Below the pieces are notes generated by a model that saw only the letters and a list, made by a program, of their open reading frames with translations, searched no databases and was not told the DNA's origin. The translations under genes and the position numbers were made by a program. From contig DAOTUB010000062.1 in assembly GCA_034437455.1 (NCBI GenBank), forward strand, positions 1 through 14,465: 14,465 nt of DNA. The letters are read 5' to 3'. This document shows, piece by piece, positions 691 to 14,336 of the stretch (within the stretch, counting starts at the first letter, position 1; each line of letters opens with the position of its first letter). Origin of the DNA: Anaerolineae bacterium. Its GTDB lineage: Bacteria; Chloroflexota; Anaerolineae; B4-G1.

Positions 691-3018
691 TTGAAAATGA
701 CCTTACACGAGATCTCTATTGAGCAATCACATAGCCATTACACTATCCGGCAAACGGTTTTAGCCTGCGTGGAGCAAGTTTTCCCTTTTGGGGCTTTTGT
801 TCGCTTGCCAGATGGCACCCAGGGCTATGTACGCAAGCGCGAGCTGACCCTGGCCGGCAACCAAGACCCCCGCGAGGTCGTCTCTCCCGGACAAGAAATC
901 AAAGCTGTGGTAGTCGCCTTGCCCCAGGCTGAACAAAGCCTCGAGTTGAGCGTGCGTCAGGCCGAACCCGATCCCTGGGAAACATTCGGACAGTCCCAAG
1001 TCCGTGACACTGTCACAGCCACGGTCAAAAAGCTCTACAACAGAGGCGCCCTCGTCCAAGTCACTCCCGGCGTAGACGGGTTCATCCCATTGGCCGAGTT
1101 GGCACCCTGGCCGGTGGAAAAGCCGGATGACTTGCTCTGGGTCGGTGACCGGGTAGAAGCGATGATTACTCATCTTGACCGGCAGGCCAGGCGGATGTGG
1201 CTCAGCATCCGGCAACAAGTAAAGCACACAGCACGCGTAAGAGAGGTGCTGTCGTTTCTCAGCAAAAAGGAAGATCCGGAAGAGACTTTACCCCAGGAGG
1301 AACCCGTCACCCTTGAGAAAGACCAAGGCATAGACCCAGCCATCGCCCAGCAAGTGGGACGCATTTTGGTAGTGGATGACCATGACAAAGTACGGGAACC
1401 GCTGGCGGCATGGCTGCATCGGATGGGCTTTGCGACGGAACAAGCTAAATCCCCCCACCAGGCGCTCGACTGCTGCCTTGAAAACGCTTACGGGCTGGCA
1501 TTGATTGACCTGAACCTTTCAGGCCAAGACGGACTGGAACTTGTTCAGGCCTTGAAAGACTTGAACCCGGATATCCCAATAGCCATCATGAGCACTCCCG
1601 AATGGATTGCCCAACGGTTGGAAGCGCTGTCCACACTGCGTCCGGTTCATATATTCGCCAAGCCACTAGACCTGGACGAGATCCGCGAGCTGTTGGTCCA
1701 ATTGGCTCGCGGTGAAATATTCCCTCCCACCGCTTTCACTAAGCCAGAGGTCCAAAAATCACCTGCGGCCTCCTCACACATGGCTAAAATGATGCGCAGC
1801 GACCTATCGTTAGCAAAACGTTTCCAAGCTGGCCTACAGGAACTAGTCCAGCAAGGCCAGGCAGATCAGGGCATCCTTTTTCAGCTCGCTCCCGACTCGC
1901 AGCAAATTTCTATCGTCGCGCAGGCCGGGAACATGGCATTAAACCAGGCGGCTATGTACAACCTGCGCCAAAGCCCGGTCAAAGACGTGATCTATGAGCA
2001 AGATGAGGTATTTGAGACAGACGTCTCGCGTCACGCTCAAGGTCAATTCAGCAAGCTATTAGCGCTGCTGCCCTTTGAATCCTGCCTGGGCGTCCCCATC
2101 CCGGCCGCCGGTCAGGTACAACATGCCCTGTTTCTGTTTCATCGTGAGCCAGAGATCTTTTCCCGCTATCGCTTGCGAGATGCACGCGCCATGGCCGTGC
2201 TGTTTAGCGCAGCGCTAGAAAGTCAAGCATTGGAAAAACGTATCCAGTCTGTCAGTCCATTTTTGCTGAGCGGGCAACTAGCGGCCGGCTTTGGCCACGA
2301 AGTATATAACAAGATGTCCGGGTTAGAGCTACAGATTTGCAACCTACAATCCGACTGCCAAACTGTGCAGCGAGATTTGACAGGGTGCCAACCGGTAGAC
2401 GACGGCGCCCTCGACGCACTGCTCAAAGCCACGGGCCGGTTGTTAGAATCCGCACTAGACCTCAAAGGCACCTTGCAACTTTTTCGCGAACTCGTTCAGG
2501 CTGAGCAGCAAGACCAAGTGGACGTGAACGCAGTGACACAACGCGCCATTCAACTGCTGCGTACCACCGCAGGCCAGCACCAGGTCATCATAGAAGAAAA
2601 ACTGGTTCCAGACTTGCCCCCGGTCAGAGGCAGTGCCGTCCGCCTGCAACAGGTTTTCGTCAACCTGATGCTAAACGCGATCCAACAAACCGCCCTAAAA
2701 ATGGTAAAATGGCCCGAAGGCCAGGGGGTACTGAGCATCGCGACGACTTGGGAGCCAGCGGCCGAGTGTCCCGTGCAAGTGCGGTTTATGGATAACGGGC
2801 CCGGGATACACCGCCACTTGTGGGACAAGATTTTTACCCTGGGCTTTTCGACCCGACAGGGCGGAACAGGCCTGGGTTTGTTCATCGCCAAGAGCCTGAT
2901 CGAGTCCTTGGGCGGCAAGGTCTGCGTAGAACAAAGCATGATCCCTGAGGGGAGCATTTTTCGGGTGGAACTGCCAGCGGCCAAGCATTGTCAACGAGGA
3001 GCGAGCAGCGATGCATGA
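691..3018 (+). CDS. Hybrid sensor histidine kinase with tandem N-terminal S1 RNA-binding domains: S1, S1, REC, GAF, HisKA, HATPase_c (775 aa). The ORF track starts at TTG 691; an in-frame ATG at 697 is an alternative start.
   Basis: Coordinates are aa (nt) throughout.
- S1 folds, two copies: residues about 15-92 (FGAFVRLPDGTQGYVRKRELT ... SLELSVRQ) and about 101-176 (GALVQVTPGVDGFIPLAELA ... MWLSIRQ).
- REC, aa 224-340 (nt 1360-1710): RILVVDDHD, LALIDLNLSG, IMST, FAKP.
- GAF, aa about 365-515 (nt 1783-2235).
- HisKA H-box: LAAGFGHEVYNKMSGL (His536, nt 2296-2298).
- HATPase: N box VFVNLMLNAIQQT, G1 DNGPGI, G2 GGTGLGLFIAKSL.
- A TATAAT hexamer lies at 658-663 upstream.
- No strong Shine-Dalgarno sequence before 691/697. 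Confidence 0.85.
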   Translation: MKMTLHEISIEQSHSHYTIRQTVLACVEQVFPFGAFVRLPDGTQGYVRKRELTLAGNQDPREVVSPGQEIKAVVVALPQAEQSLELSVRQAEPDPWETFGQSQVRDTVTATVKKLYNRGALVQVTPGVDGFIPLAELAPWPVEKPDDLLWVGDRVEAMITHLDRQARRMWLSIRQQVKHTARVREVLSFLSKKEDPEETLPQEEPVTLEKDQGIDPAIAQQVGRILVVDDHDKVREPLAAWLHRMGFATEQAKSPHQALDCCLENAYGLALIDLNLSGQDGLELVQALKDLNPDIPIAIMSTPEWIAQRLEALSTLRPVHIFAKPLDLDEIRELLVQLARGEIFPPTAFTKPEVQKSPAASSHMAKMMRSDLSLAKRFQAGLQELVQQGQADQGILFQLAPDSQQISIVAQAGNMALNQAAMYNLRQSPVKDVIYEQDEVFETDVSRHAQGQFSKLLALLPFESCLGVPIPAAGQVQHALFLFHREPEIFSRYRLRDARAMAVLFSAALESQALEKRIQSVSPFLLSGQLAAGFGHEVYNKMSGLELQICNLQSDCQTVQRDLTGCQPVDDGALDALLKATGRLLESALDLKGTLQLFRELVQAEQQDQVDVNAVTQRAIQLLRTTAGQHQVIIEEKLVPDLPPVRGSAVRLQQVFVNLMLNAIQQTALKMVKWPEGQGVLSIATTWEPAAECPVQVRFMDNGPGIHRHLWDKIFTLGFSTRQGGTGLGLFIAKSLIESLGGKVCVEQSMIPEGSIFRVELPAAKHCQRGASSDA
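733..1218 (+). other. Tandem S1 (OB-fold) RNA-binding domain region of the 691-3018 kinase.
   Basis: Two roughly 75-aa repeats matching the S1 pattern G-x-V-x-G-x-V ... GAFV ... G-x-V-(H/R) ... S-E-L ... G-x-x-(I/V)-x-(V/A)-x-V-(L/I) ... (L/I)-S-(V/I)-R-Q. Seen in translation only; no HMM was run. Confidence 0.7.
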
Positions 3019-6000
3019 AGAACCGCTAAGGGTAGTACTGATAGACGACGAGCAAAGCCTGCGCGAGCCGTTAGCCAAGCGCCTACGAGACAAGTACAAC
3101 TATCACGTCGATGCTGCCGCCGATGCCCGTCAAGCCTGGCAGTTGATTACCGAGGCCAGTTCACCTTACGATGTGGCTCTAATCGACGATATGTTGACAC
3201 CTCAGGCCCAAGTTGAACCCCAACTGATTGGCATCGACCTTACACGCCGGATCAGAGAAGACCATCCCGAGACAGAATGCATCCTCTTCACCGGGTGGGG
3301 TATGGAGCGGGCGCTAGAGGGACTACGCGCCGGCGCGTACCGCTACCTGTCCAAGCCGATCAACATGGAAGAACTAGGCATGACCATCCGTATGGCAGCG
3401 GAGCATCGCCGGCTCAAACAGCAACTGGAAACCACCCGCCAGGAGAAAAAATGGCTACAGACGTTCCTGGAAATCGGTCGGGCAACGACTTCTGTCCTGG
3501 AATTGGATGAGGTTTTGGAACATGTCCATGCACAAATCAGTCTCCTTATGGATGCTTCTTGTATGGACGTCGTCCTATATGACAGTGCCAATCAAACGCT
3601 CAAGTTCGAGTTGGGCTATGACAAAGGGGTCAAGGAGACGAGATGGGAGCGCCCATTCACCGCAGACCATGGATTGACCGATTTGGTGATTCAACATCGT
3701 CACCCGCTGCTGATCAGAGATTATAAAAAAGAAACCCCTCCCGTTCTCGCCTATCAGCGTGGCGAAATGAGCCGTTCGTGGCTGGGCGTCCCCCTGATCG
3801 CGCGCGACCAGGTCATCGGGGCCATCACGGTGCAAAGCTATACACCGCACAAATTCGACGAGACGGATCAGCAAATCCTGGATACGGTGGCCAACCACAT
3901 AGCCAGCGCCATCCAAAACGCTCAATTATTCTCTGAACTGGTCAAGACCCAAAAGTGGCGCGAAGCGCTCATCAACAACACCCTAGATGCGGTGATCGCT
4001 ATTGACCAGGGCAAACGAGTGACGGTCTTTAACCAGCGCGCTGAACAGATGTTTGGCTGGCATGCGCGAGAAATCATAGGGCAGCCGGTCACCCAATTAC
4101 ATATGAGTACGGGAAAGGCCAAAGAGATCTTTGACACGGTAAACCATGAAGGAGAGATCTCGAGTCTGGAAGTAGAACTAAGACATCGGGACGGTACCGC
4201 TATCCCGGCGCGGCTTTCAGCAACGCGGATCAAAGACAGCAACGGTCATCCCATCGGGCAAGCGCGGTTTATGCGTGATTTACGCCAGGTCAACCTGTTG
4301 GAAGAACGGCTGCGGGCTTTGATCCGAGGAAATCGGGTCATTAACAGCAGTCTGGAATTAGAGCAAGTACTCAACCAGGTCATCCAAGCTGCACTAGAAG
4401 CTTTCCCGATGGCACAAGGGGGTGTTATTCACCTGTATGATAAACACAGCAGTGTATTGCGCCTCCAAGCAAATACTTTCAGTTACAGCCCTTCAGCCAT
4501 CGAGGCGTTGCACATGAAGCCCGGTGAAGGCATTGCCGGTTGGGTCTATATGCGCGGACAGCCCGTGGTGATCCCAGATGCACACCAGGATGAGCGTTAC
4601 AAGCTGATCGCCCATCCGGAAATCGCTCCCCACAAACCTATGGTGTGCGTACCCCTCAAAGTGAGAGATCAAGTACTTGGAACACTATCGCTCAACACAG
4701 TAGAGACCGGCAACACCTTTCAAGCCGAGGACCTGGGATTACTTTCCACATTTGCCGATCAGGCGGCTGTCGCCATCAACAACGCCCGCTTTTTTAGGGA
4801 ACAGGACCGCCGCCAGCAACTCTTGACCAGGCTGAACGAAGCGTCACGGCACATCCGTGCGGAAAAACCAATCCCCAAGCTCTTGCACGAAATCGTTCGC
4901 CAGGCGGTCCGGTTGGTCGACTGTTCGGCAGGCGCGCTGTTCCTCAACCGCCCCCACGTCAAGGAACTAGAATTACAAGTGACCTATGAACTACCCACCG
5001 AATTGGTTGGCAGTCATCTATCGCACACCGAAGGCTTGGTCGGTTTAGTTGCACGAACTGGCAAGTCCAAATTCATACGCAATTACTCAACATGGTCAAG
5101 ACCCACAGTGCTCTTTGAACCCTATAACTTTGAAAGCGTCGCTGGAATCCCTCTCAAACAAGCCGGCGAGGTACAAGCGGTCTTGCTCGTCGCTGACCAG
5201 ACCGGCACTCCGGCGCATCTGCAGCCGTCCGACCTGGAGATACTGGAGCGCCTGGCGGCACAGGCCGCTATCGAACTCGAGACCTCTCTATTGATGAGCC
5301 GAGAACAACGCGTGGCCAGTCAATTAGGTATCCTGCACCAAATCAGCGATTACATACAAGCAGCCAGAGACCTGGACAAAGTGTTGCACGTCGTCCTGAC
5401 GGGCGTGACGGCGGGTTATGGTCTGGGCTTTAATCGTGCGGCGCTGTTGCTGCTAGATGAGCGCCAGGAACACCTGGTGGGACGCATGGGCATCGGCCAA
5501 CTGGAGGAACCAGCAGCGCAACAAGACTGGGAGCAACACCACAAGCACAAATTAGAGGATTTTCAAAGATACCTCGAACTGTTGGAAAAGGACGCCCTGC
5601 CGTTGACGCCGGTGGGAGAGAAAATCCGCGACATCAGGCTGCCCCTCACGCCTCACGTCTGTGGCATCCTCATGCGGGTGATGCGCCAGCAACAGCACCT
5701 ACTCCTGACTCTAGAGGAATTAAACGAACTACCAGGCAGCTTTGTCAAGGTTTTCGACCCGGCACAGCCAATCATCGTTGCGCCCCTGCTGGCGCGCGGA
5801 GCGGTCATCGGACTGCTCATCGCCGATAACAAGTTCACTGCGTCGCCCATCACGCCGGAGGACACAGAGGCACTGCTGACCTTTGCCAACACGGCCGCGA
5901 TCGCCATCAGCAACGCACAACTTTACCACGAAACTCGGGTCGCACGAGAGCGGTTGCGCAGCTTTTACGAGGCCAGCAACGCCCTGGTCTCGTCCCAGGA

Positions 6001-9000
6001 TCCCGAACAAGTGCTCCGAAAAATCGTCGAACAAGCTCACCAGACGGCCAGCTCGGCCTGGACCGGCCTGATCTTGATCGACAAGGCTGGACAGGCACAA
6101 AAACTGGTCACGATGGGAATAGACGAGTACGGCGGATTTACCGTTCGGCCCGACGGGATCTCGATGCAGGCTATGTGCAGCGACCAAGCCCAAATCATCG
6201 AGGATGTCCGGGCAGAACGCGACCGCGTCAACCCAGGTTTGCTGCGCGACGGCATTGGCGCCGCTTTGTGTTTGCCCCTCTCCCTGCAAGAAAACCACTT
6301 TGGTGTGATGTGGCTGCACTATGCCATGCCGCGCCATTTCCCCATCAGTGAGGTTGAAGCCTTGCAGCTCTACGTCAATCAGGCGGCCATCGCTTACGAT
6401 GCTGCCCGACGTATGCAGCAGCTAGAAAACATGCGACGAGCGGCCGAGGCACTGGCTGGCGCTTCTAGCATAGCGGCAGTGCTCAAGCAAATAGCCGAAA
6501 GCGCCAGGATTGTCCTGAATGCCGACTCGTCCGTCGTCTGGCCGTACGATCACGAGAGACGCACCTTTTTGCCCGCCGAGCTAGAGACGGCCGGCATTTC
6601 ACCCGAGCTAGTCGAACAATTTCGAGATGTCGAACCTCAACCAGAAGGTACAACGGAAACAGTTTTGCATTTAGGGTGGATTGGCGTCTCGGACGTCGAC
6701 CAGGAGGTGCACCCCTTCCTGGGTCCCCCTGACAGAGGCTTGCGTGGGGCGATCACCGTCCAATCCTTCCAAGGGATCGCTTTACGGGCGGGCGACGAAA
6801 TTCTGGGCGTGCTGTACGCAGACTATGAAAGGCCGCGTAGCTTTAATAAAGCGGACCGCCGGCTGGCTGAAACCTTTGCCACTCACGCTTCCCTGGCCCT
6901 CAAGAAAGCCAGACTGCTGGACCAAATCAGCCAAGTGAGAGACACAGCCAAAGCCGTGGCCGAAGTCAGCATCCTGGAGAAACTAGCAAGTACGCTAGAC
7001 TCGATTACGCGGGGGACTTGCAAAACGCTCAACTGCGATGCCGTCACCCTCTACACTTTTGATCAGCGCAAAGACCAAATCGGGTTTCCCCCAACGGTGA
7101 TAGGGATACGAGACACGAAACAAGTCCTCGAGTTAGGCTTTGTGGCAAGGAACTCGGTTGTCGGCAAAATACTAGACTTGGGTCAAGTGCATGTGGCCGA
7201 AGACGCTCCTTCCGATCCCATCATGGGCGGGGTGTTTGTCAAACGTGAGGGTATCAAATCATCGCTCGGCGTCCCACTCCAGGTCGGCGACCAAAAAGTA
7301 GGGGTGATGTTTGTGAACTATCGCACCCCGCACCGTTTTACCGGTGAAGAACTGACCAACATCAAGCTCTTTGCGACCCAGGCTGCCATCGCCATCCGCA
7401 ACGCTCGGCTCATAGACGATATTTTCCACCGCAACATTCAGCTCCAGACCGTCACCGAGGTCTCCAAGTCAACCAGCACCCTTCTCGCCCCCGAAGCATT
7501 GATGCACCAGGCAGTCAACCTGATTCGAGAGCGCTTTGAACTCTACTATGTGGGTCTATTTTTAACCGATGAAAGCAGCAAGCATGCAGTATTGCGAGCC
7601 GGCACCGGTGACGCGGGTCAAAGAATGCTCACAGATGGCTACAAGCTAGAGATCGATGATCACTCGATGATTGGATGGAGCATCAACAACGCCCAACCAC
7701 GTATCGCGCTCGACATCGACAAAGAAAAAATCCGCTTCAACAACCCTCACCTGCCCGAGACTCACTCCGAGCTGGCGCTGCCGCTGATCAGCCGTGGTCG
7801 CTGCATCGGTGCCCTGACGGTGCAAAGCACCAGGCCAGATGCCTTTTCCTCTGAAGACGTCGCCGTGCTGCAAACGATGGCCGATCAATTGGCCATCGCC
7901 ATCGAGAACGCTCAGCTATATCGAGAAGAAACAGAACAGCTCCAGGAATCCCAGGCCCTGCAAAAAATAGCGATCTCTCTCGCCGGTAGCCTTGAGCTTG
8001 GTGAAGTGTTGAACCACGTGATGCAGGCAGCGATGGGCTTTACCGAAACAGATTCTGGCACCATCTTGTTGTGGAACGCAGAACAAGAAAATTTCACCTA
8101 CACACTCACCACAACGGGGCCAGAACGAACCCTACAGGTATATACCAGCCAAACCCGCGAGGAAGGCATAGCCCGGTCAATCATTGAGGAGCAAAAGACG
8201 GTCATCATTTCCAACGCCCAGGATGACCCCCGGATCAATCCCATTGCGATTGAAAAAGGCCGACGAGCGCTCATCGGCACTCCACTGGTGAGCCGCGAAG
8301 AAGTAATCGGCGTACTCTATGTAAGCAGCTTGGAACCCCGCCAGTTCCTTGCACAACAAGTGAGCTTGTTAAAAAGCCTGGCTAGCCAGGCTGCAGTGGC
8401 CATTGAAAGAGCGCGACAACACAAAGAGTTAAAAGAAACCAAAAGCGTCATCGGTGCCAGGACAGCACTGGCATGGATGGGGATGACCAGTAGCGCCTGG
8501 CGTCACACCATCGAAAAGCATTCCCTGACCATACGGGAGCAAGCACAACTCCTGCGCCAAGACTGGGAAAAAGTGATGCCGCATTCTCAAAAGCTCAAAG
8601 CCCAGGACCGCATCGCGATGATTGAGCGATTGACGACGCAAATCCTGCAAAAACCGATCACACCACCCCTTTCCAGCGAATCCGGTGTTCAGTTGGTATC
8701 GCTGACCACGCTGGTCAGCGAGCGTGCTAGACAATTATGGCAAAATGACCCCTACAAAAAGACCAAGCTCCAACTGGACTTGCAACTACCGGAGGAAGCG
8801 GCGGTCCGCACTAGCCCTGAATGGTTGCGACGGGCTTTTGATATCTTGGTGGACAATGCGGTGAATGCCGTTACAGACTGTCCTGTGCGCGAGATTACTA
8901 TCGGCACCAAAGCTTACAGCTCGGGAGTCAAGGTTTTCGTGTCGGACACTGGACCGGGCATCCCAGACGAGATGCAAGACAAAATCGGCCTTGAGGCGAT

Positions 9001-9172
9001 AGAGAAACCCAAAGATGCCAAAGGGCTCGGTATGGGGCTACTAATGGCCCACGTTATTGTACAAACTTATGGGGGGAAAATTTGGCTTGATTGCACCGGA
9101 CCCGAGGGCACGACCATGTCCATCTGGCTCCCCTTGGAAGCCCGACCCTCAGAGGGAGAGCAGACCTCATGA
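3011..9172 (+). CDS. Giant multi-sensor hybrid histidine kinase (2053 aa): N-terminal REC, GAF1, PAS, GAF2 through GAF9, divergent HisKA, HATPase_c. ATG 3011 overlaps the upstream stop (TGA 3016-3018) by 8 nt; SD GAGGAG at 2996-3001.
   Basis: - REC: VVLIDDEQ, VALIDDML, ILFTGW, LSKP.
- PAS: TLDAVIAIDQGKRVTVFNQRAEQMFGWHAREIIGQP at about nt 3950-4290.
- Nine GAF-like units, each closing with the helix motif (F/L)A-x-QAA(I/V)AI-x-NA(R/Q)L(Y/F/I). The nine closing motifs are:
  1. ANHIASAIQNAQLF
  2. ADQAAVAINNARFF
  3. AAQAAIELETSLL
  4. ANTAAIAISNAQLY
  5. NQAAIAYDAARR
  6. ATHASLALKKARLL
  7. ATQAAIAIRNARLI
  8. ADQLAIAIENAQLY
  9. ASQAAVAIERARQ
- Divergent H-box: LAWMGMTSSAWRHTIEKH, which aligns to LAxxGxxAxxxAHEIxNPL.
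- HATPase: N box FDILVDNAVNAV, G1 DTGPGI, G2 KGLGMGLLMAH. Confidence 0.9.
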   Translation: MHEEPLRVVLIDDEQSLREPLAKRLRDKYNYHVDAAADARQAWQLITEASSPYDVALIDDMLTPQAQVEPQLIGIDLTRRIREDHPETECILFTGWGMERALEGLRAGAYRYLSKPINMEELGMTIRMAAEHRRLKQQLETTRQEKKWLQTFLEIGRATTSVLELDEVLEHVHAQISLLMDASCMDVVLYDSANQTLKFELGYDKGVKETRWERPFTADHGLTDLVIQHRHPLLIRDYKKETPPVLAYQRGEMSRSWLGVPLIARDQVIGAITVQSYTPHKFDETDQQILDTVANHIASAIQNAQLFSELVKTQKWREALINNTLDAVIAIDQGKRVTVFNQRAEQMFGWHAREIIGQPVTQLHMSTGKAKEIFDTVNHEGEISSLEVELRHRDGTAIPARLSATRIKDSNGHPIGQARFMRDLRQVNLLEERLRALIRGNRVINSSLELEQVLNQVIQAALEAFPMAQGGVIHLYDKHSSVLRLQANTFSYSPSAIEALHMKPGEGIAGWVYMRGQPVVIPDAHQDERYKLIAHPEIAPHKPMVCVPLKVRDQVLGTLSLNTVETGNTFQAEDLGLLSTFADQAAVAINNARFFREQDRRQQLLTRLNEASRHIRAEKPIPKLLHEIVRQAVRLVDCSAGALFLNRPHVKELELQVTYELPTELVGSHLSHTEGLVGLVARTGKSKFIRNYSTWSRPTVLFEPYNFESVAGIPLKQAGEVQAVLLVADQTGTPAHLQPSDLEILERLAAQAAIELETSLLMSREQRVASQLGILHQISDYIQAARDLDKVLHVVLTGVTAGYGLGFNRAALLLLDERQEHLVGRMGIGQLEEPAAQQDWEQHHKHKLEDFQRYLELLEKDALPLTPVGEKIRDIRLPLTPHVCGILMRVMRQQQHLLLTLEELNELPGSFVKVFDPAQPIIVAPLLARGAVIGLLIADNKFTASPITPEDTEALLTFANTAAIAISNAQLYHETRVARERLRSFYEASNALVSSQDPEQVLRKIVEQAHQTASSAWTGLILIDKAGQAQKLVTMGIDEYGGFTVRPDGISMQAMCSDQAQIIEDVRAERDRVNPGLLRDGIGAALCLPLSLQENHFGVMWLHYAMPRHFPISEVEALQLYVNQAAIAYDAARRMQQLENMRRAAEALAGASSIAAVLKQIAESARIVLNADSSVVWPYDHERRTFLPAELETAGISPELVEQFRDVEPQPEGTTETVLHLGWIGVSDVDQEVHPFLGPPDRGLRGAITVQSFQGIALRAGDEILGVLYADYERPRSFNKADRRLAETFATHASLALKKARLLDQISQVRDTAKAVAEVSILEKLASTLDSITRGTCKTLNCDAVTLYTFDQRKDQIGFPPTVIGIRDTKQVLELGFVARNSVVGKILDLGQVHVAEDAPSDPIMGGVFVKREGIKSSLGVPLQVGDQKVGVMFVNYRTPHRFTGEELTNIKLFATQAAIAIRNARLIDDIFHRNIQLQTVTEVSKSTSTLLAPEALMHQAVNLIRERFELYYVGLFLTDESSKHAVLRAGTGDAGQRMLTDGYKLEIDDHSMIGWSINNAQPRIALDIDKEKIRFNNPHLPETHSELALPLISRGRCIGALTVQSTRPDAFSSEDVAVLQTMADQLAIAIENAQLYREETEQLQESQALQKIAISLAGSLELGEVLNHVMQAAMGFTETDSGTILLWNAEQENFTYTLTTTGPERTLQVYTSQTREEGIARSIIEEQKTVIISNAQDDPRINPIAIEKGRRALIGTPLVSREEVIGVLYVSSLEPRQFLAQQVSLLKSLASQAAVAIERARQHKELKETKSVIGARTALAWMGMTSSAWRHTIEKHSLTIREQAQLLRQDWEKVMPHSQKLKAQDRIAMIERLTTQILQKPITPPLSSESGVQLVSLTTLVSERARQLWQNDPYKKTKLQLDLQLPEEAAVRTSPEWLRRAFDILVDNAVNAVTDCPVREITIGTKAYSSGVKVFVSDTGPGIPDEMQDKIGLEAIEKPKDAKGLGMGLLMAHVIVQTYGGKIWLDCTGPEGTTMSIWLPLEARPSEGEQTS

Positions 9173-9558
9173 AGCACTTCTTATTGGTCGGTAACCCATC
9201 AGGCTCGCAGTGGTCCTCGATCTTGCGTCGGGCACTGTCTACTTTGGGTGAGCTGCGCATCGCGTCTGAAGCAAACGCCCCACGGGAAATCTCGAGAAAA
9301 AATTACGATGCGATCATTGTAGACGCCGGCGCCGTTCAAGACGTTAACGCTCTGACATCTCTTCTGCGTCAAGACCACCCTCAGGCACGCGTGATCGTTG
9401 CCACCGCGTCTCCCACCTGGAGACGCGCGCGCGAGGCACTCCGTGCCGGCGCCGCCGACTATATCCGCAAATCGCTGGATGAAAAAGAACTCCTGGTCGC
9501 TATCCAGGAAGCGTTATTAGTTCCCCTTCCTGCCTTATCCGAGTCGAAACGGAGGTAA
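9169..9558 (+). CDS. Stand-alone receiver-like protein (129 aa from ATG 9169); atypical or pseudo-receiver. The ATG overlaps the stop of the giant kinase (ATGA at 9169-9172); GGGAGAG lies 12-18 nt upstream. The ORF track's earlier start (9091) would overlap the kinase by 82 nt and seems less likely.
   Basis: CheY-like layout. The conserved acidic pair is replaced in LLVGNPS (DD to GN). The putative phospho-Asp is kept in AIIVDAG, a T/S position in VATAS, and a Lys in IRKS. Seen directly in translation. Confidence 0.6.
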   Translation: MKHFLLVGNPSGSQWSSILRRALSTLGELRIASEANAPREISRKNYDAIIVDAGAVQDVNALTSLLRQDHPQARVIVATASPTWRRAREALRAGAADYIRKSLDEKELLVAIQEALLVPLPALSESKRR

Positions 9559-9560
9559 AT

Positions 9561-11528
9561 ATGGCCCAGTTCACTGTGCTCTTTGTTGATAACGATCAAG
9601 ATTTTCTCAATACCCGCACCGAATTTCTAGAAAATGCCGGGTATCGCGTGATCAAAGCCGCCAGTCTTGATCAGGCCCGAAAGTTCCTAAGTGACGCCCT
9701 GGTCCATCTGGCCATCCTGGATATCCGTATAGTCGACGACGATGATGAAAAGGACATCAGCGGCCTGGTTCTGGCCAAAGAGCCGGCCTACAGCCTCATC
9801 CCCAAAATTATCCTCACGAATTTTCCGAGCTATCAAGATGTGCGGGAGGTTCTAAAACCTGCCTTACAGGGCCTCCCTCCTGCCGTGGACTTTTTATCCA
9901 AAAAGGACGGCCCGACAATCATGATTCAGGCCGTCCACGAGGCCTTTGACAAATATGTACGCCTCAATCAGGACTTGCGCATTGACTGGGGCCCACGGGA
10001 GTCTCTGAATCCTCTCCATCTGGCGCGCCTGCTAAACCCTGACGCGTCTAACGAGGTTTTGGTACAACGCGCCGATGAACTAGAGGACCTCCTGCGCCGC
10101 GTATTCTGTGATTATCAACAGGTCAGAATTGGCCGGTTGCTGTGGCATATCGAACAGCGCCTCTGCGTACCGGTCTTGGCGCAATCTACCCAGCAAGCGA
10201 CCGACGCCCGGATCCTGGTGTGCGGAGAACGGGGACCTATGGAGCAAGAACTGGCGTGTATGCAAGAGCTGGTACCAGAACGCGGGGCAACGTTGGTCAA
10301 CACGACCGATACCGTGCATTTCTGTGCAGCAATCTATGCCCTGGCCGACGCCCAGTTGGAAAGCATACAAACCTTGAGAGAGTTGTTTCAAAGCGGCAAG
10401 AAACGCCCTCTCACAACCGCCCTGGATCGCCTGTTAAAAGACACGCTGGCAGACTGGCACCAACGCGGACAAGCTCTGCAGGAATCGGGCCACTTGATCG
10501 AAGTTTATCGCCGCTGGGCAGAGCTGGACCAGGACGGTACGTCTCGGTCAAAGGTCAAGCGCCACGTAGAGAAACTGGTCCAGATATCCCGCGCGTTAAG
10601 CGCAGTGGAAATTCAAAGCCTTGACCAAGGCATCACATTTCAGTTCCCTCAACAAGCACCGTTGAACTATCCTGACCCCGTGGCTATCCTGTACACCCCA
10701 TTGGAATCCTATTCCGGGCCAATCGTGTGTCGCGTCTCGCCCGGCCGCCTGACGCCTGACAACGTGCTCATAGATGCCCAGCAACGGACCTGGCTAACCG
10801 ACCTGGCTCGCGCCGGACAGGCCCCCCAATGGTGGGATTTCGTGTGCCTGGAGGCGCTGTTTCGCTTTGATCTCAGTCAGGCCCCAGACCTGCTGGCCTG
10901 GCAAGAGTTCGAAGAATGCTTGATTTGCCCTAACGTGCTGCACGATAATCTACGGGAACAGGACGTGGTGCAAGATCTGCGCATGAGCGTGACGCTCATT
11001 GAGCAAATCCGCAGACAAGCCGGCAGTGAAGCCGGACCCGACCCCCGACCTTACTATGCAGGCCTGCTGGCATGGGTCGTCGGCGCCATCGCCCAACACG
11101 ATCCAAGCAGGCTGTATACGCCGGCCGAGCAAATGCGCAACGCACACCTCTTGATGGCCGCCGCTATGCTCGCGAACCGGTTAAGCGAGTCAACAGCCAA
11201 AGTGAACCCTGGTGGGTCGCTGCGCTTGGATGCAGAAGGCACTGTCTGGATGGGAGAACGCCGGGTCGATGAACTGGGAGGACAAGAGCTTGATTTGTTG
11301 CGCCTGCTCTATGAACAACCGGGACAACTCGTCAAGCGCGAGCGCATCATCGAATCTGTATTCGGCGAACCTTATGCCGAGGGCGACAAACACCAGGCAG
11401 GCCGCATTAACTCCCTGATAAGACGTCTGCGCGTCAAGATTGAACCCAATTCCCGCCGTCCGCGCTACCTACTGACCGTCAAGGGCAAAGGTTATCGCTT
11501 GCAGGTAAAGAACAAACCTCAAGAGTAG
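9561..11528 (+). CDS. 655-aa response regulator: N-terminal REC, then a central protein-kinase-like (Hanks/APH-type) domain that is probably a pseudokinase, then a C-terminal OmpR/PhoB-type winged-helix DNA-binding domain. SD GGAGG 7 nt upstream of ATG 9561.
   Basis: - REC: LFVDNDQD, LAILDIR, IILTNF, VLKP.
- Kinase-like catalytic loop: SPGRLTPDNVLID, aa 394-405 (nt about 10740-10775). It aligns to HRDLKPENILID / HGDLHPGNVLV with the catalytic D replaced by R.
- DFG-like motif: WLTDLARAG, aa 411-419.
- APE-like plus DxWSxG-like region: APQWWDFVCLEA.
- wHTH: LLRLLYEQPGQLVKRERIIESVFG ... RINSLIRRLRVKIE ... YLLTVKGKGYRL. Confidence 0.85.
   Translation: MAQFTVLFVDNDQDFLNTRTEFLENAGYRVIKAASLDQARKFLSDALVHLAILDIRIVDDDDEKDISGLVLAKEPAYSLIPKIILTNFPSYQDVREVLKPALQGLPPAVDFLSKKDGPTIMIQAVHEAFDKYVRLNQDLRIDWGPRESLNPLHLARLLNPDASNEVLVQRADELEDLLRRVFCDYQQVRIGRLLWHIEQRLCVPVLAQSTQQATDARILVCGERGPMEQELACMQELVPERGATLVNTTDTVHFCAAIYALADAQLESIQTLRELFQSGKKRPLTTALDRLLKDTLADWHQRGQALQESGHLIEVYRRWAELDQDGTSRSKVKRHVEKLVQISRALSAVEIQSLDQGITFQFPQQAPLNYPDPVAILYTPLESYSGPIVCRVSPGRLTPDNVLIDAQQRTWLTDLARAGQAPQWWDFVCLEALFRFDLSQAPDLLAWQEFEECLICPNVLHDNLREQDVVQDLRMSVTLIEQIRRQAGSEAGPDPRPYYAGLLAWVVGAIAQHDPSRLYTPAEQMRNAHLLMAAAMLANRLSESTAKVNPGGSLRLDAEGTVWMGERRVDELGGQELDLLRLLYEQPGQLVKRERIIESVFGEPYAEGDKHQAGRINSLIRRLRVKIEPNSRRPRYLLTVKGKGYRLQVKNKPQE
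10100..11130 (+). other. Kinase-like (probable pseudokinase) insert domain of the 9561-11528 regulator.
   Basis: Approximate span inferred from the positions of the catalytic-loop and DFG-like motifs. The N-lobe assignment is tentative because no clear Gly-rich loop or VAIK lysine is seen. Confidence 0.45.
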
Positions 11529-11571
11529 GCAAAATCGTCTTGCTGTTATCTTTTTATCACACAAGCAAGAG

Positions 11572-11581
11572 ATGACGTCAT
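11572..11581. promoter_or_regulatory. Perfect 10-bp palindrome ATGACGTCAT (core TGACGTCA).
   Basis: Read directly; self-complementary. Lies 44 nt after the regulator gene's stop and upstream of the SPFH-like gene. Confidence 0.5.
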
Positions 11582-11587
11582 AAAAGT

Positions 11588-11615
11588 GTGACATACCATC
11601 ATCATACAGTGACAC
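11588..11615 (+). promoter_or_regulatory. Direct repeats GTGACAT (11588-11594) and GTGACAC (11609-11615), 21 bp apart (about two helical turns). Candidate binding sites for a winged-helix (OmpR-type) regulator.
   Basis: Read directly. The 21-bp phasing and a TGAC core shared with the neighbouring palindromes are the only evidence. Confidence 0.35.
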
Positions 11616-11616
11616 A

Positions 11617-11658
11617 TTGCAAGGTAACTCCAATCCGGACATCATATTGTCCGGATTG
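11617..11658 (+). promoter_or_regulatory. Putative promoter/operator for the SPFH-like operon. A -35-like TTGCAA (11617-11622) is followed by a perfect 11-bp inverted repeat CAATCCGGACA-tcatat-TGTCCGGATTG (11631-11658). The repeat's AT-rich loop (TCATAT) is the best -10 candidate.
   Basis: The inverted repeat is an exact reverse complement (read directly). The promoter hexamers are weak matches and the spacer is 18-19 bp, so the promoter call is tentative. A palindrome centred on a -10 element is a classic repressor-operator geometry. Confidence 0.4.
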
Positions 11659-11791
11659 TTCATGGGTTAACATGATGCTTGCAAGGCCCTATACACCGCG
11701 GCTTTGCTAGTAAAAATGTGGAGCCCAGCCCATCGCTCCCCACATAGATCAAACTTGCGCGGGTCAGTTTGAAAACGAGAGGAGAATAAAG

Positions 11792-13111
11792 ATGGAAAGT
11801 TACCAAGACGGACATGCGGAACAAGCGAAAGCGCGTCCCATAAAGTATTGGCCGCCCGATGGTTCCAAATTCAATGGCCTGGTAGGTCCTGCTAAACAAA
11901 TGCGGATCCTGCCCCTGGTCCCCAAACTCCACATCGTCCCAGCAGGCACGTGCGCCGTCCTTACATTGCCCGGAGGGAAGCGCACAATCTTTCAAGAAGG
12001 TATGCACGTGCTCAAGGATCTCCCCGCAGGCGTATGCTTGCTGCGCTACGTCGATATGCGGGAACATCGCACCCCCATATCACTCACCGAGGCCTGGTGT
12101 AAAGATGGGTGGCGCGGCAAGCTTGCGCTACAGATTCACTGGCGCGTCAATGACGCGGCACACCTCGTGGATGTCGCCGACCCTGTCGGGAACCTCACCA
12201 CCGCCGCCAAGGCGAGTGTGCGCGCTGTCATCGAGACGACGCCCCACGACAAGCTGATCGGTGGGAGCGACGAGCAAGCCATAGCGACCGATTCCCTGGC
12301 GGCGGCCGTGACCGCTAAACTGCAAGACAATCCGGCCACCAAGGGTATCAAAATCCTGCGCGTCCTGATCACCGAACGCCAAGGTGACACACGCTGCATC
12401 GAGATCGCGCAAGAAAAAACGGTCGAGCACAAGCGGCAGGAACTGGTCTTGCTGCAGGAGGAAACGGAGCGCAAGCGCAAAGAAGAGGAAAGAAAAGTGC
12501 GCATCCGGGAAGCAGAGATCGAGGCCGAAACGGAAGGCCGGCTCGCTGCTATCAAGTGGCAGCAAGTGCAGTTAGAACAGGCAGCGGAACTGAACAAACA
12601 ACATCACGAACGGGCGCTAAAAATCATCGAGGCCTACGCTCAGGTGCTGAGCAAGGCAGCAGAACTCGGACAACTGGAGGCACTCGGTGTCTCCTCGCGT
12701 CGCCGGCCCGAACTCGCCACCGGTGGCTTGGAGAGTATGCTGAACCAAGGGCTGAGCAACTTGCAAAGTGCGCTTCAGGCGCCAACCATCAGCCCGCTTC
12801 CCACGTATGCCAGCTCTTACAATGAAAAAGCCGCCCTGGCCGCGCGCCTCGCGGCCGAGGCTGCCGAGGTGGCCGAACTGGAAGGGGTCAAGCAGTGCTA
12901 CGTAGGCGTGTGCAAGAAAGAAAAGGGTAACACGGTTTTCGTCTGGCTGGATGGCCGACGGTTGAGCATCTGCTGCCCCTTGGACTACCCTCAAACCGCT
13001 CCCAAAGTGCAATGGGCTGACAACGGCCACCACAAAGTGCCGCTCAATTGGTCTGAAGGGATGTCGCTCTCGCACATCGTAGCGGACATCCGGGCAACCG
13101 CCCAAGCCTGA
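11792..13111 (+). CDS. SPFH/band-7 (stomatin/flotillin-like) domain protein, 439 aa. No N-terminal transmembrane helix. Followed by a long ER/K-rich charged helix and a Cys-containing C-terminal tail. SD GAGAGGAG 8-15 nt upstream of the ATG.
   Basis: - The N-terminal 45 aa are hydrophilic.
- SPFH core: HIVPAGTCAVLTLPGGKRTIFQEGMHVL ... LRYVDMREHRTPIS ... CKDGW matches IVPxGxxGVVxxFGK ... PGLHF ... VDLRE ... TKDN.
- Band-7 signature-like ATKGIKILRVLITE.
- Charged helix: QEKTVEHKRQELVLLQEETERKRKEEERKVRIREAEIEAETE.
- Tail: CYVGVCKKEKGNTVFVWLDGRRLSICCPLDYP. Confidence 0.75.
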   Translation: MESYQDGHAEQAKARPIKYWPPDGSKFNGLVGPAKQMRILPLVPKLHIVPAGTCAVLTLPGGKRTIFQEGMHVLKDLPAGVCLLRYVDMREHRTPISLTEAWCKDGWRGKLALQIHWRVNDAAHLVDVADPVGNLTTAAKASVRAVIETTPHDKLIGGSDEQAIATDSLAAAVTAKLQDNPATKGIKILRVLITERQGDTRCIEIAQEKTVEHKRQELVLLQEETERKRKEEERKVRIREAEIEAETEGRLAAIKWQQVQLEQAAELNKQHHERALKIIEAYAQVLSKAAELGQLEALGVSSRRRPELATGGLESMLNQGLSNLQSALQAPTISPLPTYASSYNEKAALAARLAAEAAEVAELEGVKQCYVGVCKKEKGNTVFVWLDGRRLSICCPLDYPQTAPKVQWADNGHHKVPLNWSEGMSLSHIVADIRATAQA

Positions 13112-13139: not shown

Positions 13140-14336
13140 ATGCAAGAGACACCTTTCATACATACGGCCTACCGTCAAGAGACTCTAGTCGAGTCCGGCT
13201 TGTTCAATCACCTAGGAGTAGCCCACGAGCAGTTGCCCGGCTATCACGCCTTGTTTGCTGCTCGGGTCCTGGTGACGCCCTATGAAATCTTGGCCGAAAG
13301 AAAGTGGGGCATGGTAGAAAGAGATCTGCTAGACGAGGTTCTGGACAGACAGAGGCGCTTTATCGCCAGCCTACACTACATAGATCCTCATTCCACCAGC
13401 CCTGACCCTAGCCTCAAGACGGCAGCGCTGCGCTATGTCGCTCGACCGGAGACGCGGCAAATAGACACGATACTGGTGGGCAAAGTCTTTGCCCACCAGA
13501 TCGACCAGGCTCGTGATATGGCTCTCGCCTGGTACAAGGAAATCGAAGCACTGTTTTCCCGTGACTACAAGCTGCAACCGCTCAAGTCAGAAGAGGAATT
13601 CATAACCCAATCGGGGCAACAACTGCTCAAAAGCATCTCTGAGCCCACACAGACAGAAGTCAGACGCTACGAGATGTTCTTGCCCAGGTCGACCGAACGA
13701 GAAGTAAGGGAAACCCACTATGTCGTGTATCCTTTTATGTGGCATCGAAACGGCATGGATCAAGTATGGCAAGTTATGGCGTCAATGTCAGCACCTGTCA
13801 TACTCAGCGTTATGCTGCGTCCGGCTTATTTGTACGAAGCGGAAGAGCTGCATTTGGCGCGATTTTACGAGGCCACAAAAAATCTCAAGTCCGAACGCGT
13901 CGCCGACCACGTGCTAGGGGAACAAGCCGCGCAGATATACGCCGGATACCTCCGGACCTGGCGCCAACCTTTCCTGGTGCGCGCGCAGGTCACCGCACCG
14001 CAAGGGACCCACCGCGCGCTGGCACGCGCGGTGGGATGTGCACTGTCATACGGCGCGCCGGCCAGTGGCGATGACAGACATAGCCCGTTCCCTGGTTACG
14101 AGTTGATCACACCCACCAAAGAGGACCGCAAGACCGCACGCGACAATGTATGCTGGCTCGAGATGCAAGACTGGGGGACTGACCAAGCTGCACCAGCCTA
14201 TCGTAGGTTTCGATACCTGACCGACTTGAAAGGCGCCCATTGCTTGTTTCGTCTCCCGTTCGTGCCCAAGGCCGGCTTGCCTGGCGCACAATTTGACAAA
14301 TCGTCAACGCCGGACGCAGACTCGAACAATCGATAG
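13140..14336 (+). CDS. Hypothetical protein, 398 aa, no recognisable domain; apparently soluble. Starts 28 nt after the SPFH-like gene's stop with SD GAGG 6 nt upstream, so it is probably co-transcribed.
   Basis: Long ORF with protein-like composition, tightly linked on the same strand. I see no catalytic or structural motif I can name, and no hydrophobic transmembrane segment. Confidence 0.55.
   Translation: MQETPFIHTAYRQETLVESGLFNHLGVAHEQLPGYHALFAARVLVTPYEILAERKWGMVERDLLDEVLDRQRRFIASLHYIDPHSTSPDPSLKTAALRYVARPETRQIDTILVGKVFAHQIDQARDMALAWYKEIEALFSRDYKLQPLKSEEEFITQSGQQLLKSISEPTQTEVRRYEMFLPRSTEREVRETHYVVYPFMWHRNGMDQVWQVMASMSAPVILSVMLRPAYLYEAEELHLARFYEATKNLKSERVADHVLGEQAAQIYAGYLRTWRQPFLVRAQVTAPQGTHRALARAVGCALSYGAPASGDDRHSPFPGYELITPTKEDRKTARDNVCWLEMQDWGTDQAAPAYRRFRYLTDLKGAHCLFRLPFVPKAGLPGAQFDKSSTPDADSNNR

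Follow-up and report, generated by a model that had tools for sequence, protein, structure and literature searches.

The window analysed here is the whole of a 14,465-nucleotide stretch of DNA (contig DAOTUB010000062.1 of assembly GCA_034437455.1) from an Anaerolineae bacterium of the phylum Chloroflexota, and the gene under study encodes PsR, a stand-alone pseudo-receiver that lies directly after a giant GAF-array sensor kinase and directly ahead of a 655-aa DNA-binding regulator with a receiver (REC) domain of its own. As judged from its sequence and from a structural model, PsR is a genuine receiver-fold protein; the two acids with which receivers bind Mg2+ are replaced in it by Gly and Asn, while the phospho-accepting Asp and the Thr, Lys and Tyr of the switch are kept, and this combination runs through the family to which it belongs. 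With moderate confidence, we read PsR as a non-phosphorylatable or poorly phosphorylatable adaptor or gate; the CA-pseudoreceiver-REC layout known from ShkA-type hybrid kinases would here be split over separate proteins. The gene, its upstream junction and the codons of its key residues are located as follows.

9169-9558, + strand: PsR gene (stand-alone pseudo-receiver, 129 aa), ATG start, TAA stop included; from the open reading frame and its translation
9169-9172, + strand: ATGA stop/start overlap of the giant kinase gene (TGA at 9170-9172) with the PsR start; read from the sequence
9190-9195, + strand: codons of G8-N9, the Mg2+-binding acidic-pair positions (CheY D12/D13), directly after model strand β1; from alignment with CheY, PhoB and Spo0F
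9322-9324, + strand: codon of D52, the phospho-accepting Asp position (CheY D57), at the end of β3
9403-9420, + strand: codons of T79-A80-S81-P82-T83-W84 (CheY T87, the small T+1 residue and the family-specific SPTW β4-α4 loop); from family composition
9460-9474, + strand: codons of Y98-I99-R100-K101-S102 (switch Tyr = CheY Y106, Lys = CheY K109, Ser at K+1 in place of the usual Pro); from family composition

A receiver fold without its metal-binding acids

Against the Pfam profile PF00072 (Response_reg), PsR scored 36.0 bits, the gathering score being 30.2 (E 8.5e-9), and because the alignment spans only residues 33-112, the N-terminus of the protein lies outside the profile match. The AlphaFold2 (AF2) model, which was built on 69 homologues (predicted local distance difference test score, pLDDT, 88.4; predicted template modelling score, pTM, 0.83), shows the complete (βα)5 order, with β1 at residues 2-7, α1 at 14-23, β2 at 27-32, α2 at 37-43, β3 at 48-52, α3 at 59-69, β4 at 75-79, α4 at 84-92, β5 at 97-100 and α5 at 105-116. 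The best PDB matches returned by Foldseek were all receivers (FleR, NtrX, NarL and HP1043; probability 1.00, template modelling score ~0.7-0.8), and PsR thus fits the receiver superfamily both by profile score and by fold. PDB sequence and Foldseek searches found no solved structure closer than ~30% identity, and NCBIfam gave only weak sub-threshold matches to many response-regulator equivalogs, with no specific curated family. The de novo designed TIM barrels 6wvs, 7p12 and 6yqx, matched by phmmer against the PDB at ~1e-5, were rejected as relatives, since the similarity is that of repeated short βα units and Foldseek gives receivers only. Such matches are a trap for sequence-only annotation of PsR.

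A sequence-only reading of this DNA had taken PsR for a CheY-like receiver that retains its Asp, Thr and Lys motifs, which is borne out by the profile score, the (βα)5 model and the mapping of D52, T79 and K101. Placed by strand ends, and in agreement with a MAFFT alignment to CheY, PhoB and Spo0F, the residues correspond as G8=D12, N9=D13, D52=D57, T79=T87, Y98=Y106 and K101=K109 (PsR first, CheY second), within the motifs LLVGNPS (5-11), IIVDAG (49-54), ATAS (78-81) and IRKS (99-102), and this mapping confirms the further claim that GN stands in place of the acidic pair. We also looked for a displaced acidic pair within the β1-α1 loop; the earliest acidic residue of PsR is E28, which excludes one for the window protein. 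Among the residues that mark a canonical receiver, the Asp, Thr and Lys are present and the acids at the first and second position of the pair (DD1 and DD2) are absent; Pro at D+4 (Val in PsR), Gly at D+8 (Asn) and Pro at K+1 (Ser) are likewise missing. A pseudo-receiver has been defined as a recognised receiver that lacks any one of five catalytic residues (PMC12632262), and PsR falls under this definition with both DD1 and DD2 missing. It lies outside the aspartate-less receiver (ALR) subset, D52 being kept and only 4 of 151 relatives being without the Asp. A sequencing or annotation artefact was ruled out, since the exact PsR protein occurs on five independent metagenome contigs, whose named sources are microbial mats (ENA PRJEB25599), and since the same loss of the pair is seen in 69 clusters and 151 representatives of the family.

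Family-wide loss of the metal site and retention of the switch

A word-indexed search yielded 69 PsR clusters, all of 72-147 aa, and an exhaustive profile search yielded 101 representatives at E ≤ 1e-30 and 714 at E ≤ 1e-10; residue composition was counted in the best 151 representatives, and entropies were taken from the 69-cluster alignment. At DD1 the commonest residues are Gly (48), Ser (42), Thr (22) and Asn (12), with an acid in 5/149, and DD2 holds N 29, G 27, D 21, E 18, S 12, T 10, R 8, K 5 and others, with an acid in 39/148. Both positions are acidic in a single representative (1/151), and 19 of 62 close relatives carry Lys or Arg at DD2. The residues of the phosphoryl pocket and of the switch are kept: the D52 position is Asp in 69/69 clusters and 147/151 representatives, position 79 is Thr or Ser in 146/151, position 101 is Lys in 120/151 and Arg in a further 18/151, position 98 is Tyr or Phe in 145/150, and W84 is found in 149/151. 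At T+1, Ala or Gly occurs in 101/151 representatives, and K+1 is Ser or Thr in 134/151 and Pro in 4.

The β1-α1 loop, which is lengthened compared with canonical receivers, is the most variable element of the family (2.48 bits), and conservation is strongest in the β4-α4 loop (0.21 bits), β5 (0.43), the β5-α5 loop (0.55) and α4 (0.72), so that the α4-β5-α5 face is nearly invariant (SPTW-RRAR…DYIRKS; consensus ATASPTWRRAREALQAGAADYIRKSLDEKEL). This distribution indicates that selection has been released on the metal-binding loop and is strong on the phosphoryl pocket and on the α4-β5-α5 face. In receivers, DD2 contacts Mg2+ directly and DD1 does so via water, and the metal holds one phosphoryl oxygen (PMC12632262). 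Because canonical Mg2+ binding is impossible without the acidic pair, PsR is predicted not to be phosphorylated, or to be phosphorylated very poorly, and with Gly and Asn here and any residue, Lys and Arg included, in the relatives, the activity that the family conserves is unlikely to be canonical metal-assisted phosphotransfer. Among pseudo-receivers at large, ~80% are non-acidic at DD2 and ~20% at DD1, D, T and K are each kept in ~65%, the Y-T coupling is intact in 47% and T+1 is small in 43%, and loss of the D+4 Pro and the D+8 Gly is typical (PMC12632262). As far as these comparisons of sequence go, the DD2 loss in PsR is a common type of degeneration, and the near-total retention of D, T, K and Y is unusual.

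It is hardly credible that PsR is a decaying, functionless remnant of a receiver. A remnant would agree with a score just above the Pfam threshold and with an N-terminus that is left unaligned to the profile; however, the 101 representatives at E ≤ 1e-30 and the strong purifying selection on ~30 positions, together with the constant length and constant genomic context of the family, effectively refute it.

A conserved module and its natural fusions

A scan of one genome per species gave 25 loci, 24 of which are family loci, almost all in metagenome-assembled genomes (MAGs) of Chloroflexota (Anaerolineae, Caldilineae, Chloroflexia and Ardenticatenales); the remaining one (L029, in a Spirochaetales MAG) is a weak partial match and lacks all the genes that flank PsR in the others. 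Where their contigs are long enough to show it, the family loci all have the order giant GAF kinase, PsR, and a regulator made up of a REC, a kinase-like domain and a winged helix-turn-helix (wHTH) domain. The kinase stop and the PsR start overlap or abut in many orthologous loci, and a kinase with S1 domains lies upstream in most of the loci whose flank extends to it. The sequence-only reading had placed ATGA overlaps on both sides of PsR, of which the upstream one (9169-9172) is present and the downstream one is not: between the stop codon TAA (9556-9558) and the next start codon, ATG at 9561, there is a 2-nt spacer, 'AT', and a GGAGG lies at 9551-9555, ahead of the start of the 655-aa regulator. 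Scanned for promoters and terminators, the regions around 400-760 and 11400-11900 gave no signal beyond shuffled expectation, and for this reason the limits of the operon are set by gene spacing only.

In 18 of the 24 loci an extra gene is inserted between PsR and the regulator; the window lacks it at the corresponding junction, between 9558 and 9561. Its product carries a REC closely related to the REC of the regulator, usually joined to a CAP12/Pycsar-type TIR, a TIR_2, a domain with two transmembrane segments (2-TM; 'cyanobacterial TRADD-N-associated') or an EAD7 domain, and a few copies are REC-only or truncated; examples are found in L005 (10390-11088), L009 (10392-11246) and L020 (6960-7772). 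The TIR parts of related proteins match PADLOC PDC-S35 (a candidate system, 1e-72) and PycTIR, and by domain content the TIR, 2-TM and EAD7 partners appear to be typical conflict or abortive-infection effectors. Two distant modules (L030 and L031), in which the giant kinase starts with a periplasmic-binding-protein-like domain, keep the kinase, PsR, a REC-2TM protein and the REC-kinase-like-wHTH regulator and have no S1-kinase, which rules out the latter as a core member. The core module is the giant GAF kinase, PsR, the REC-effector and the REC-kinase-like-wHTH regulator; no description of this Chloroflexota module was found in the literature searched.

PsR also occurs fused in nature to either neighbour. 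At the C-terminus of a GAF kinase it is found in frame in L028 (2593-10251, identical to P0292), P0246, P0258 and P0287, and in two of these four independent fusions (L028/P0292 and P0246) the Asp has become Asn (VIINAS, VFVNAS) while the Thr, SPTW/SPRW and the Lys are kept; P0258 and P0287 retain the Asp. The Asn at the acceptor position argues that the Asp carboxylate is dispensable in those lineages. Fusions of PsR to the following REC were found in P0193, P0243, P0274, P0209, P0248, P0272, P0203 and P0247, with or without TIR, EAD7, an MCU-like domain or transmembrane segments, and PsR is fused directly to TIR in P0212, P0297 and, by length and alignment, P0197. Since fusions to both neighbours occur, PsR can be argued to work physically together with both. 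The ShkA-like placement between a CA domain and a further receiver is found in the gene order and becomes literal in the kinase-PsR and PsR-REC fusions. Because synteny, translational coupling and fusions all tie PsR to the giant kinase and to the downstream REC proteins, the earlier suggestion that it modulates the flow of signal between them is a reasonable one.

The kinases and the regulator next to PsR

The three signalling genes that accompany PsR in the window are the following.

691-3018, + strand: S1-S1-REC-GAF-histidine kinase, 775 aa, first gene of the cluster, with an 8-nt overlap with the giant kinase gene; from Pfam and NCBIfam
3011-9172, + strand: giant hybrid sensor kinase, 2053 aa, with REC, 9 GAF matches (stretches), PAS, an atypical DHp (AWRHTIEKH) and HATPase_c; from Pfam
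9561-11528, + strand: REC (DD2 = Asn), kinase-like domain and OmpR-type wHTH regulator, 655 aa; from Pfam Trans_reg_C, AF2 and Foldseek

The N-terminal RECs of both kinases are fully canonical (DD, D, S/T and K-P; MAFFT alignment), and neither window kinase matches the Pfam HisKA domain. The DHp of the giant kinase (window 8440-8480, + strand) has an atypical H-box, AWRH(A/T)I(D/E)KH, in which the residue after the His is not acidic. All orthologues compared (19/19) keep this His and also the N, G1 and G2 boxes, and for this reason the protein looks like an active kinase. It is the predicted partner of PsR. In the S1-kinase, two S1 RNA-binding domains at the N-terminus precede a canonical REC, a GAF domain and a DHp-CA core with the H-box FGHEVYNK; S1 and kinase make an unusual combination, suggestive of an input related to RNA.

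The 655-aa regulator matches Pfam Trans_reg_C, TCAD9 and Response_reg falling below threshold, and its AF2 model has a pLDDT of 87.8. Foldseek relates the middle of the protein to maltokinase, aminoglycoside phosphotransferases (APH) and the choline kinase LicA, one end to receivers and the other end to OmpR-family DNA-binding domains. In 50 homologues of the kinase-like domain (residues ~140-545; window ~9980-11200, + strand), the position of the HxD catalytic Asp is variable (R/Q/T/K), and the Asn is kept in 49/50 and the DFG-like Asp in 46/50, so that the middle domain is probably a pseudokinase or a nucleotide-binding sensor. The name 'pseudokinase-regulator' that the sequence-only reading had given to this neighbour is thus supported as to its REC, kinase-like fold and OmpR-type wHTH, and is plausible as to 'pseudokinase', which draws on the variable HxD Asp. 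The REC of the regulator (window 9561-9960, + strand) has Asp-Asn at the DD positions in 50/50, as do the extra REC genes of the relatives (L005-L028), and the same RECs share an invariant Arg at D+2, a β3-α3 acidic insertion (DDDDEKDxSG) and the absence of Pro after the Lys. Since PsR is without the pair and the RECs of the regulator and of the effectors have Asn at DD2, the receivers downstream of the giant kinase are all non-canonical by the strict definition.

The sequence-only reading had also offered PsR as a phosphorelay intermediate. In a Spo0F-like scheme the giant kinase would pass its phosphoryl group to PsR, from there to a histidine phosphotransferase (Hpt) and on to a terminal regulator, and the single-domain size, the position between a kinase and a DNA-binding regulator and the retained D, T and K agree with such a role. 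However, no Hpt- or Spo0B-like match was detected in the six window proteins by Pfam or NCBIfam, reversible Mg2+-dependent transfer needs the acidic pair, which is missing family-wide, and two fused members have Asn for Asp; we therefore regard this option as very unlikely.

Proposed role of PsR as an adaptor or gate

In the reading that we favour, we infer that PsR escapes phosphorylation, docks on the kinase, pairs with the downstream REC and acts as a gate. It would be made together with the giant GAF-array kinase through the translationally coupled ATGA junction, as a dedicated receiver-fold partner, and would dock on the kinase core. Its α4-β5-α5 face (SPTW-RRAR…DYIRKS) would then engage the next receiver, which in the window is the REC of the REC-kinase-like-wHTH regulator, and in most relatives it would also engage a REC-TIR, REC-2TM or REC-EAD7 effector. 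Instead of carrying phosphate, PsR would gate autophosphorylation and/or phosphotransfer.

The closest parallel is with hybrid kinases, in which pseudo-receivers are widespread (PMC7010744; PMC12632262). In ShkA the pseudo-receiver lies between CA and REC2 and controls autokinase activity, and its β5-α5 surface is the regulatory site (PMC7010744). Like REC1 of ShkA, and like the pseudo-receivers of BarA/GacS and RcsC, PsR is a degenerate receiver fold between a kinase core and a further receiver, with a conserved α4-β5-α5/β5-α5 face, and the gene order kinase-PsR-REC and the natural fusions mirror the domain order of hybrid kinases. Unlike these domains, PsR is usually a separate, translationally coupled protein that keeps the Asp, Thr, Lys and Tyr of the switch; neither c-di-GMP binding nor a DDR linker motif, as in ShkA, is known for it, and it has no detectable specific sequence relationship to them beyond the receiver fold.

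Several observations weigh against PsR being a protein that carries no phosphate. Its Asp (147/151), Thr/Ser (146/151), Lys/Arg (138/151), Tyr/Phe (145/150) and small T+1 residue (101/151) are conserved at receiver-like levels, as would be expected if a phosphoryl group were still bound or accepted, and substitutions in the acidic pair need not abolish phosphorylation (PMC12632262). In ~76% of the close relatives, though not in the window protein, position 12, within the lengthened β1-α1 loop, is acidic and could replace the metal ligand in these relatives. The direct PsR-TIR fusions, by their architecture, would place PsR as a signal-receiving regulatory domain. The general statement of the sequence-only reading that such receivers are usually non-phosphorylatable regulators of partner kinases goes too far, since the mechanisms of pseudo-receivers have been called 'a mystery' and only 2 of 20 characterised atypical regulators are non-orphan (PMC12632262).

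A special case of the adaptor or gate would be a pseudo-receiver with an added input, in which the face formed by W84, R86, R88, Y98, R100 and K101 binds a small molecule, for example a cyclic (di)nucleotide, and the ligand releases or imposes inhibition of the kinase. REC1 of ShkA binds c-di-GMP on its β5-α5 surface via a conserved Tyr and pseudo-receivers have been proposed as input domains of kinases (PMC7010744), five ligand-binding pseudo-receivers have been listed (PMC12632262), and the most conserved surface of PsR is this same face, rich in Arg and aromatic residues. That surface is, however, also the usual protein-protein (dimerisation) face of receivers, and no recognised nucleotide-binding motif was identified in PsR, so that we consider ligand sensing unlikely.

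The main rival of the adaptor or gate, which we hold to be less likely, is a phosphate buffer or sink of the DtcB type. Here the giant kinase would still phosphorylate D52, if slowly or with the metal coordinated in an unusual manner, and PsR would drain phosphoryl groups or compete for them, and only strong stimulation would make the downstream REC-effector and REC-regulator fire. In Detocs, mutating the Asp of DtcB makes the system toxic, and DtcB has been proposed to absorb phosphate (10.1101/2023.01.24.525353). Like DtcB, PsR is a stand-alone receiver encoded directly after a kinase, and in 18/24 related loci and in L030/L031, though not in the window, a swappable REC-effector comes next; the order kinase, stand-alone REC, REC-effector is that of dtcA-dtcB-dtcC in the same study (10.1101/2023.01.24.525353). 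There is almost no variation at D52, T79, K101, Tyr98 and the small T+1 residue, which fits a buffer better than it fits a typical pseudo-receiver, the effector domains of the relatives are of defence type (CAP12/Pycsar TIR, TIR_2, TRADD-associated 2-TM and EAD7), and here too it counts that phosphorylation can survive DD substitution (PMC12632262). On the other hand, the function of DtcB depends on its Asp, whereas the PsR family has lost both metal-binding acids, leaves DD2 unconstrained up to Lys and Arg, and has Asn at the acceptor position in two kinase-fused members. The window, unlike Detocs, ends in a DNA-binding regulator and has no REC-effector gene, and hence no lethal effector to be buffered. 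PADLOC gave no match for PsR, although it is not known whether that release holds Detocs models.

Comparison with other receivers sets PsR apart from two further groups. It shares a degenerate active site with the atypical response regulators GlnR, HP1043, ChxR, CmrT and FrzS, of which HP1043 is among its best structural matches; the Asp of GlnR is reportedly kept for a structural charge network and not for phosphorylation (cited in PMC12632262). Only CmrT and FrzS are non-orphan among the 20 characterised atypical regulators discussed there (PMC12632262). Unlike these proteins, which are mostly multidomain orphan transcription factors, PsR is single-domain, kinase-linked and conserved at receiver level in D, T, K and Y. 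It resembles CheY, Spo0F and DivK in size, in the (βα)5 fold, in the Asp, Thr and Lys and in the Tyr-Thr coupling residues, but differs from them in lacking the acidic pair, the D+4 Pro, the D+8 Gly and the K+1 Pro, and in its longer, hypervariable β1-α1 loop.

A bolder variant, which we think improbable, makes PsR a trans-acting licence factor that senses a ligand or phospho-His in an undescribed two-component 'conflict' module of filamentous Chloroflexota. This module would consist of the giant GAF-array kinase (with the S1-kinase in this clade), PsR, a REC-TIR, pore-like 2-TM or EAD7 effector and the REC-pseudokinase-wHTH regulator. Either the D/T/K pocket would sense, without a covalent bond, the phosphoryl state of the kinase, or a nucleotide messenger would bind to the Trp/Arg/Tyr face, and the Tyr-Thr switch would then expose the α4-β5-α5 face and activate the downstream receivers with Asn at DD2. 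If this were true, it would be receiver signalling without Mg2+-dependent aspartyl phosphorylation.

Other genes of the window

The remaining features of the window lie outside the signalling cluster.

1-453, + strand: 3' end of a gene entering from the left edge, with weak sub-threshold HEAT-repeat matches
11792-13111, + strand: SPFH/Band-7 protein, after a 263-nt gap
13140-14336, + strand: 398-aa protein (orf398), with no Pfam or family match

The SPFH protein and orf398 were ruled out as parts of the core module, since besides copies of the window they are syntenic only in L005 and L010, and PADLOC gave no match for either of them, nor for the giant kinase or the 655-aa regulator. Two near-identical copies of the locus diverge after the 398-aa gene (compare L001, 8906-10648, - strand, with L002, 6491-10549, + strand), one copy continuing with a DDE transposase and the other with an FHA protein and two LysM proteins, which points to a recent rearrangement at this border.

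Significance

Pseudo-receivers make up several percent of the ~2 million known receiver domains, the way in which bacteria switch them on and off has been called a mystery, and those that have been studied are almost all orphan transcription factors (PMC12632262). Pseudo-receivers without DD2 are common and kinase-associated ones have been described, so the category to which PsR belongs is not new. What is new is the family itself, which is large, uncharacterised and free-standing, has a fixed kinase partner, shows receiver-grade conservation except at the metal site and belongs to a conserved Chloroflexota module with conflict-type effectors. The family offers a clean non-orphan, single-domain case, in which the kinase partner and the downstream receivers are fixed and natural fusions indicate which proteins work together. 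Because the metal site is lost, yet the Asp, Thr, Lys and Tyr are kept, the question of whether such a protein is a docking adaptor or an atypical phospho-acceptor becomes addressable with three purified proteins. In this module, histidine-kinase signalling is linked with effectors of the TIR, 2-TM and death-like adaptor kinds, a Detocs-like logic in Chloroflexota.

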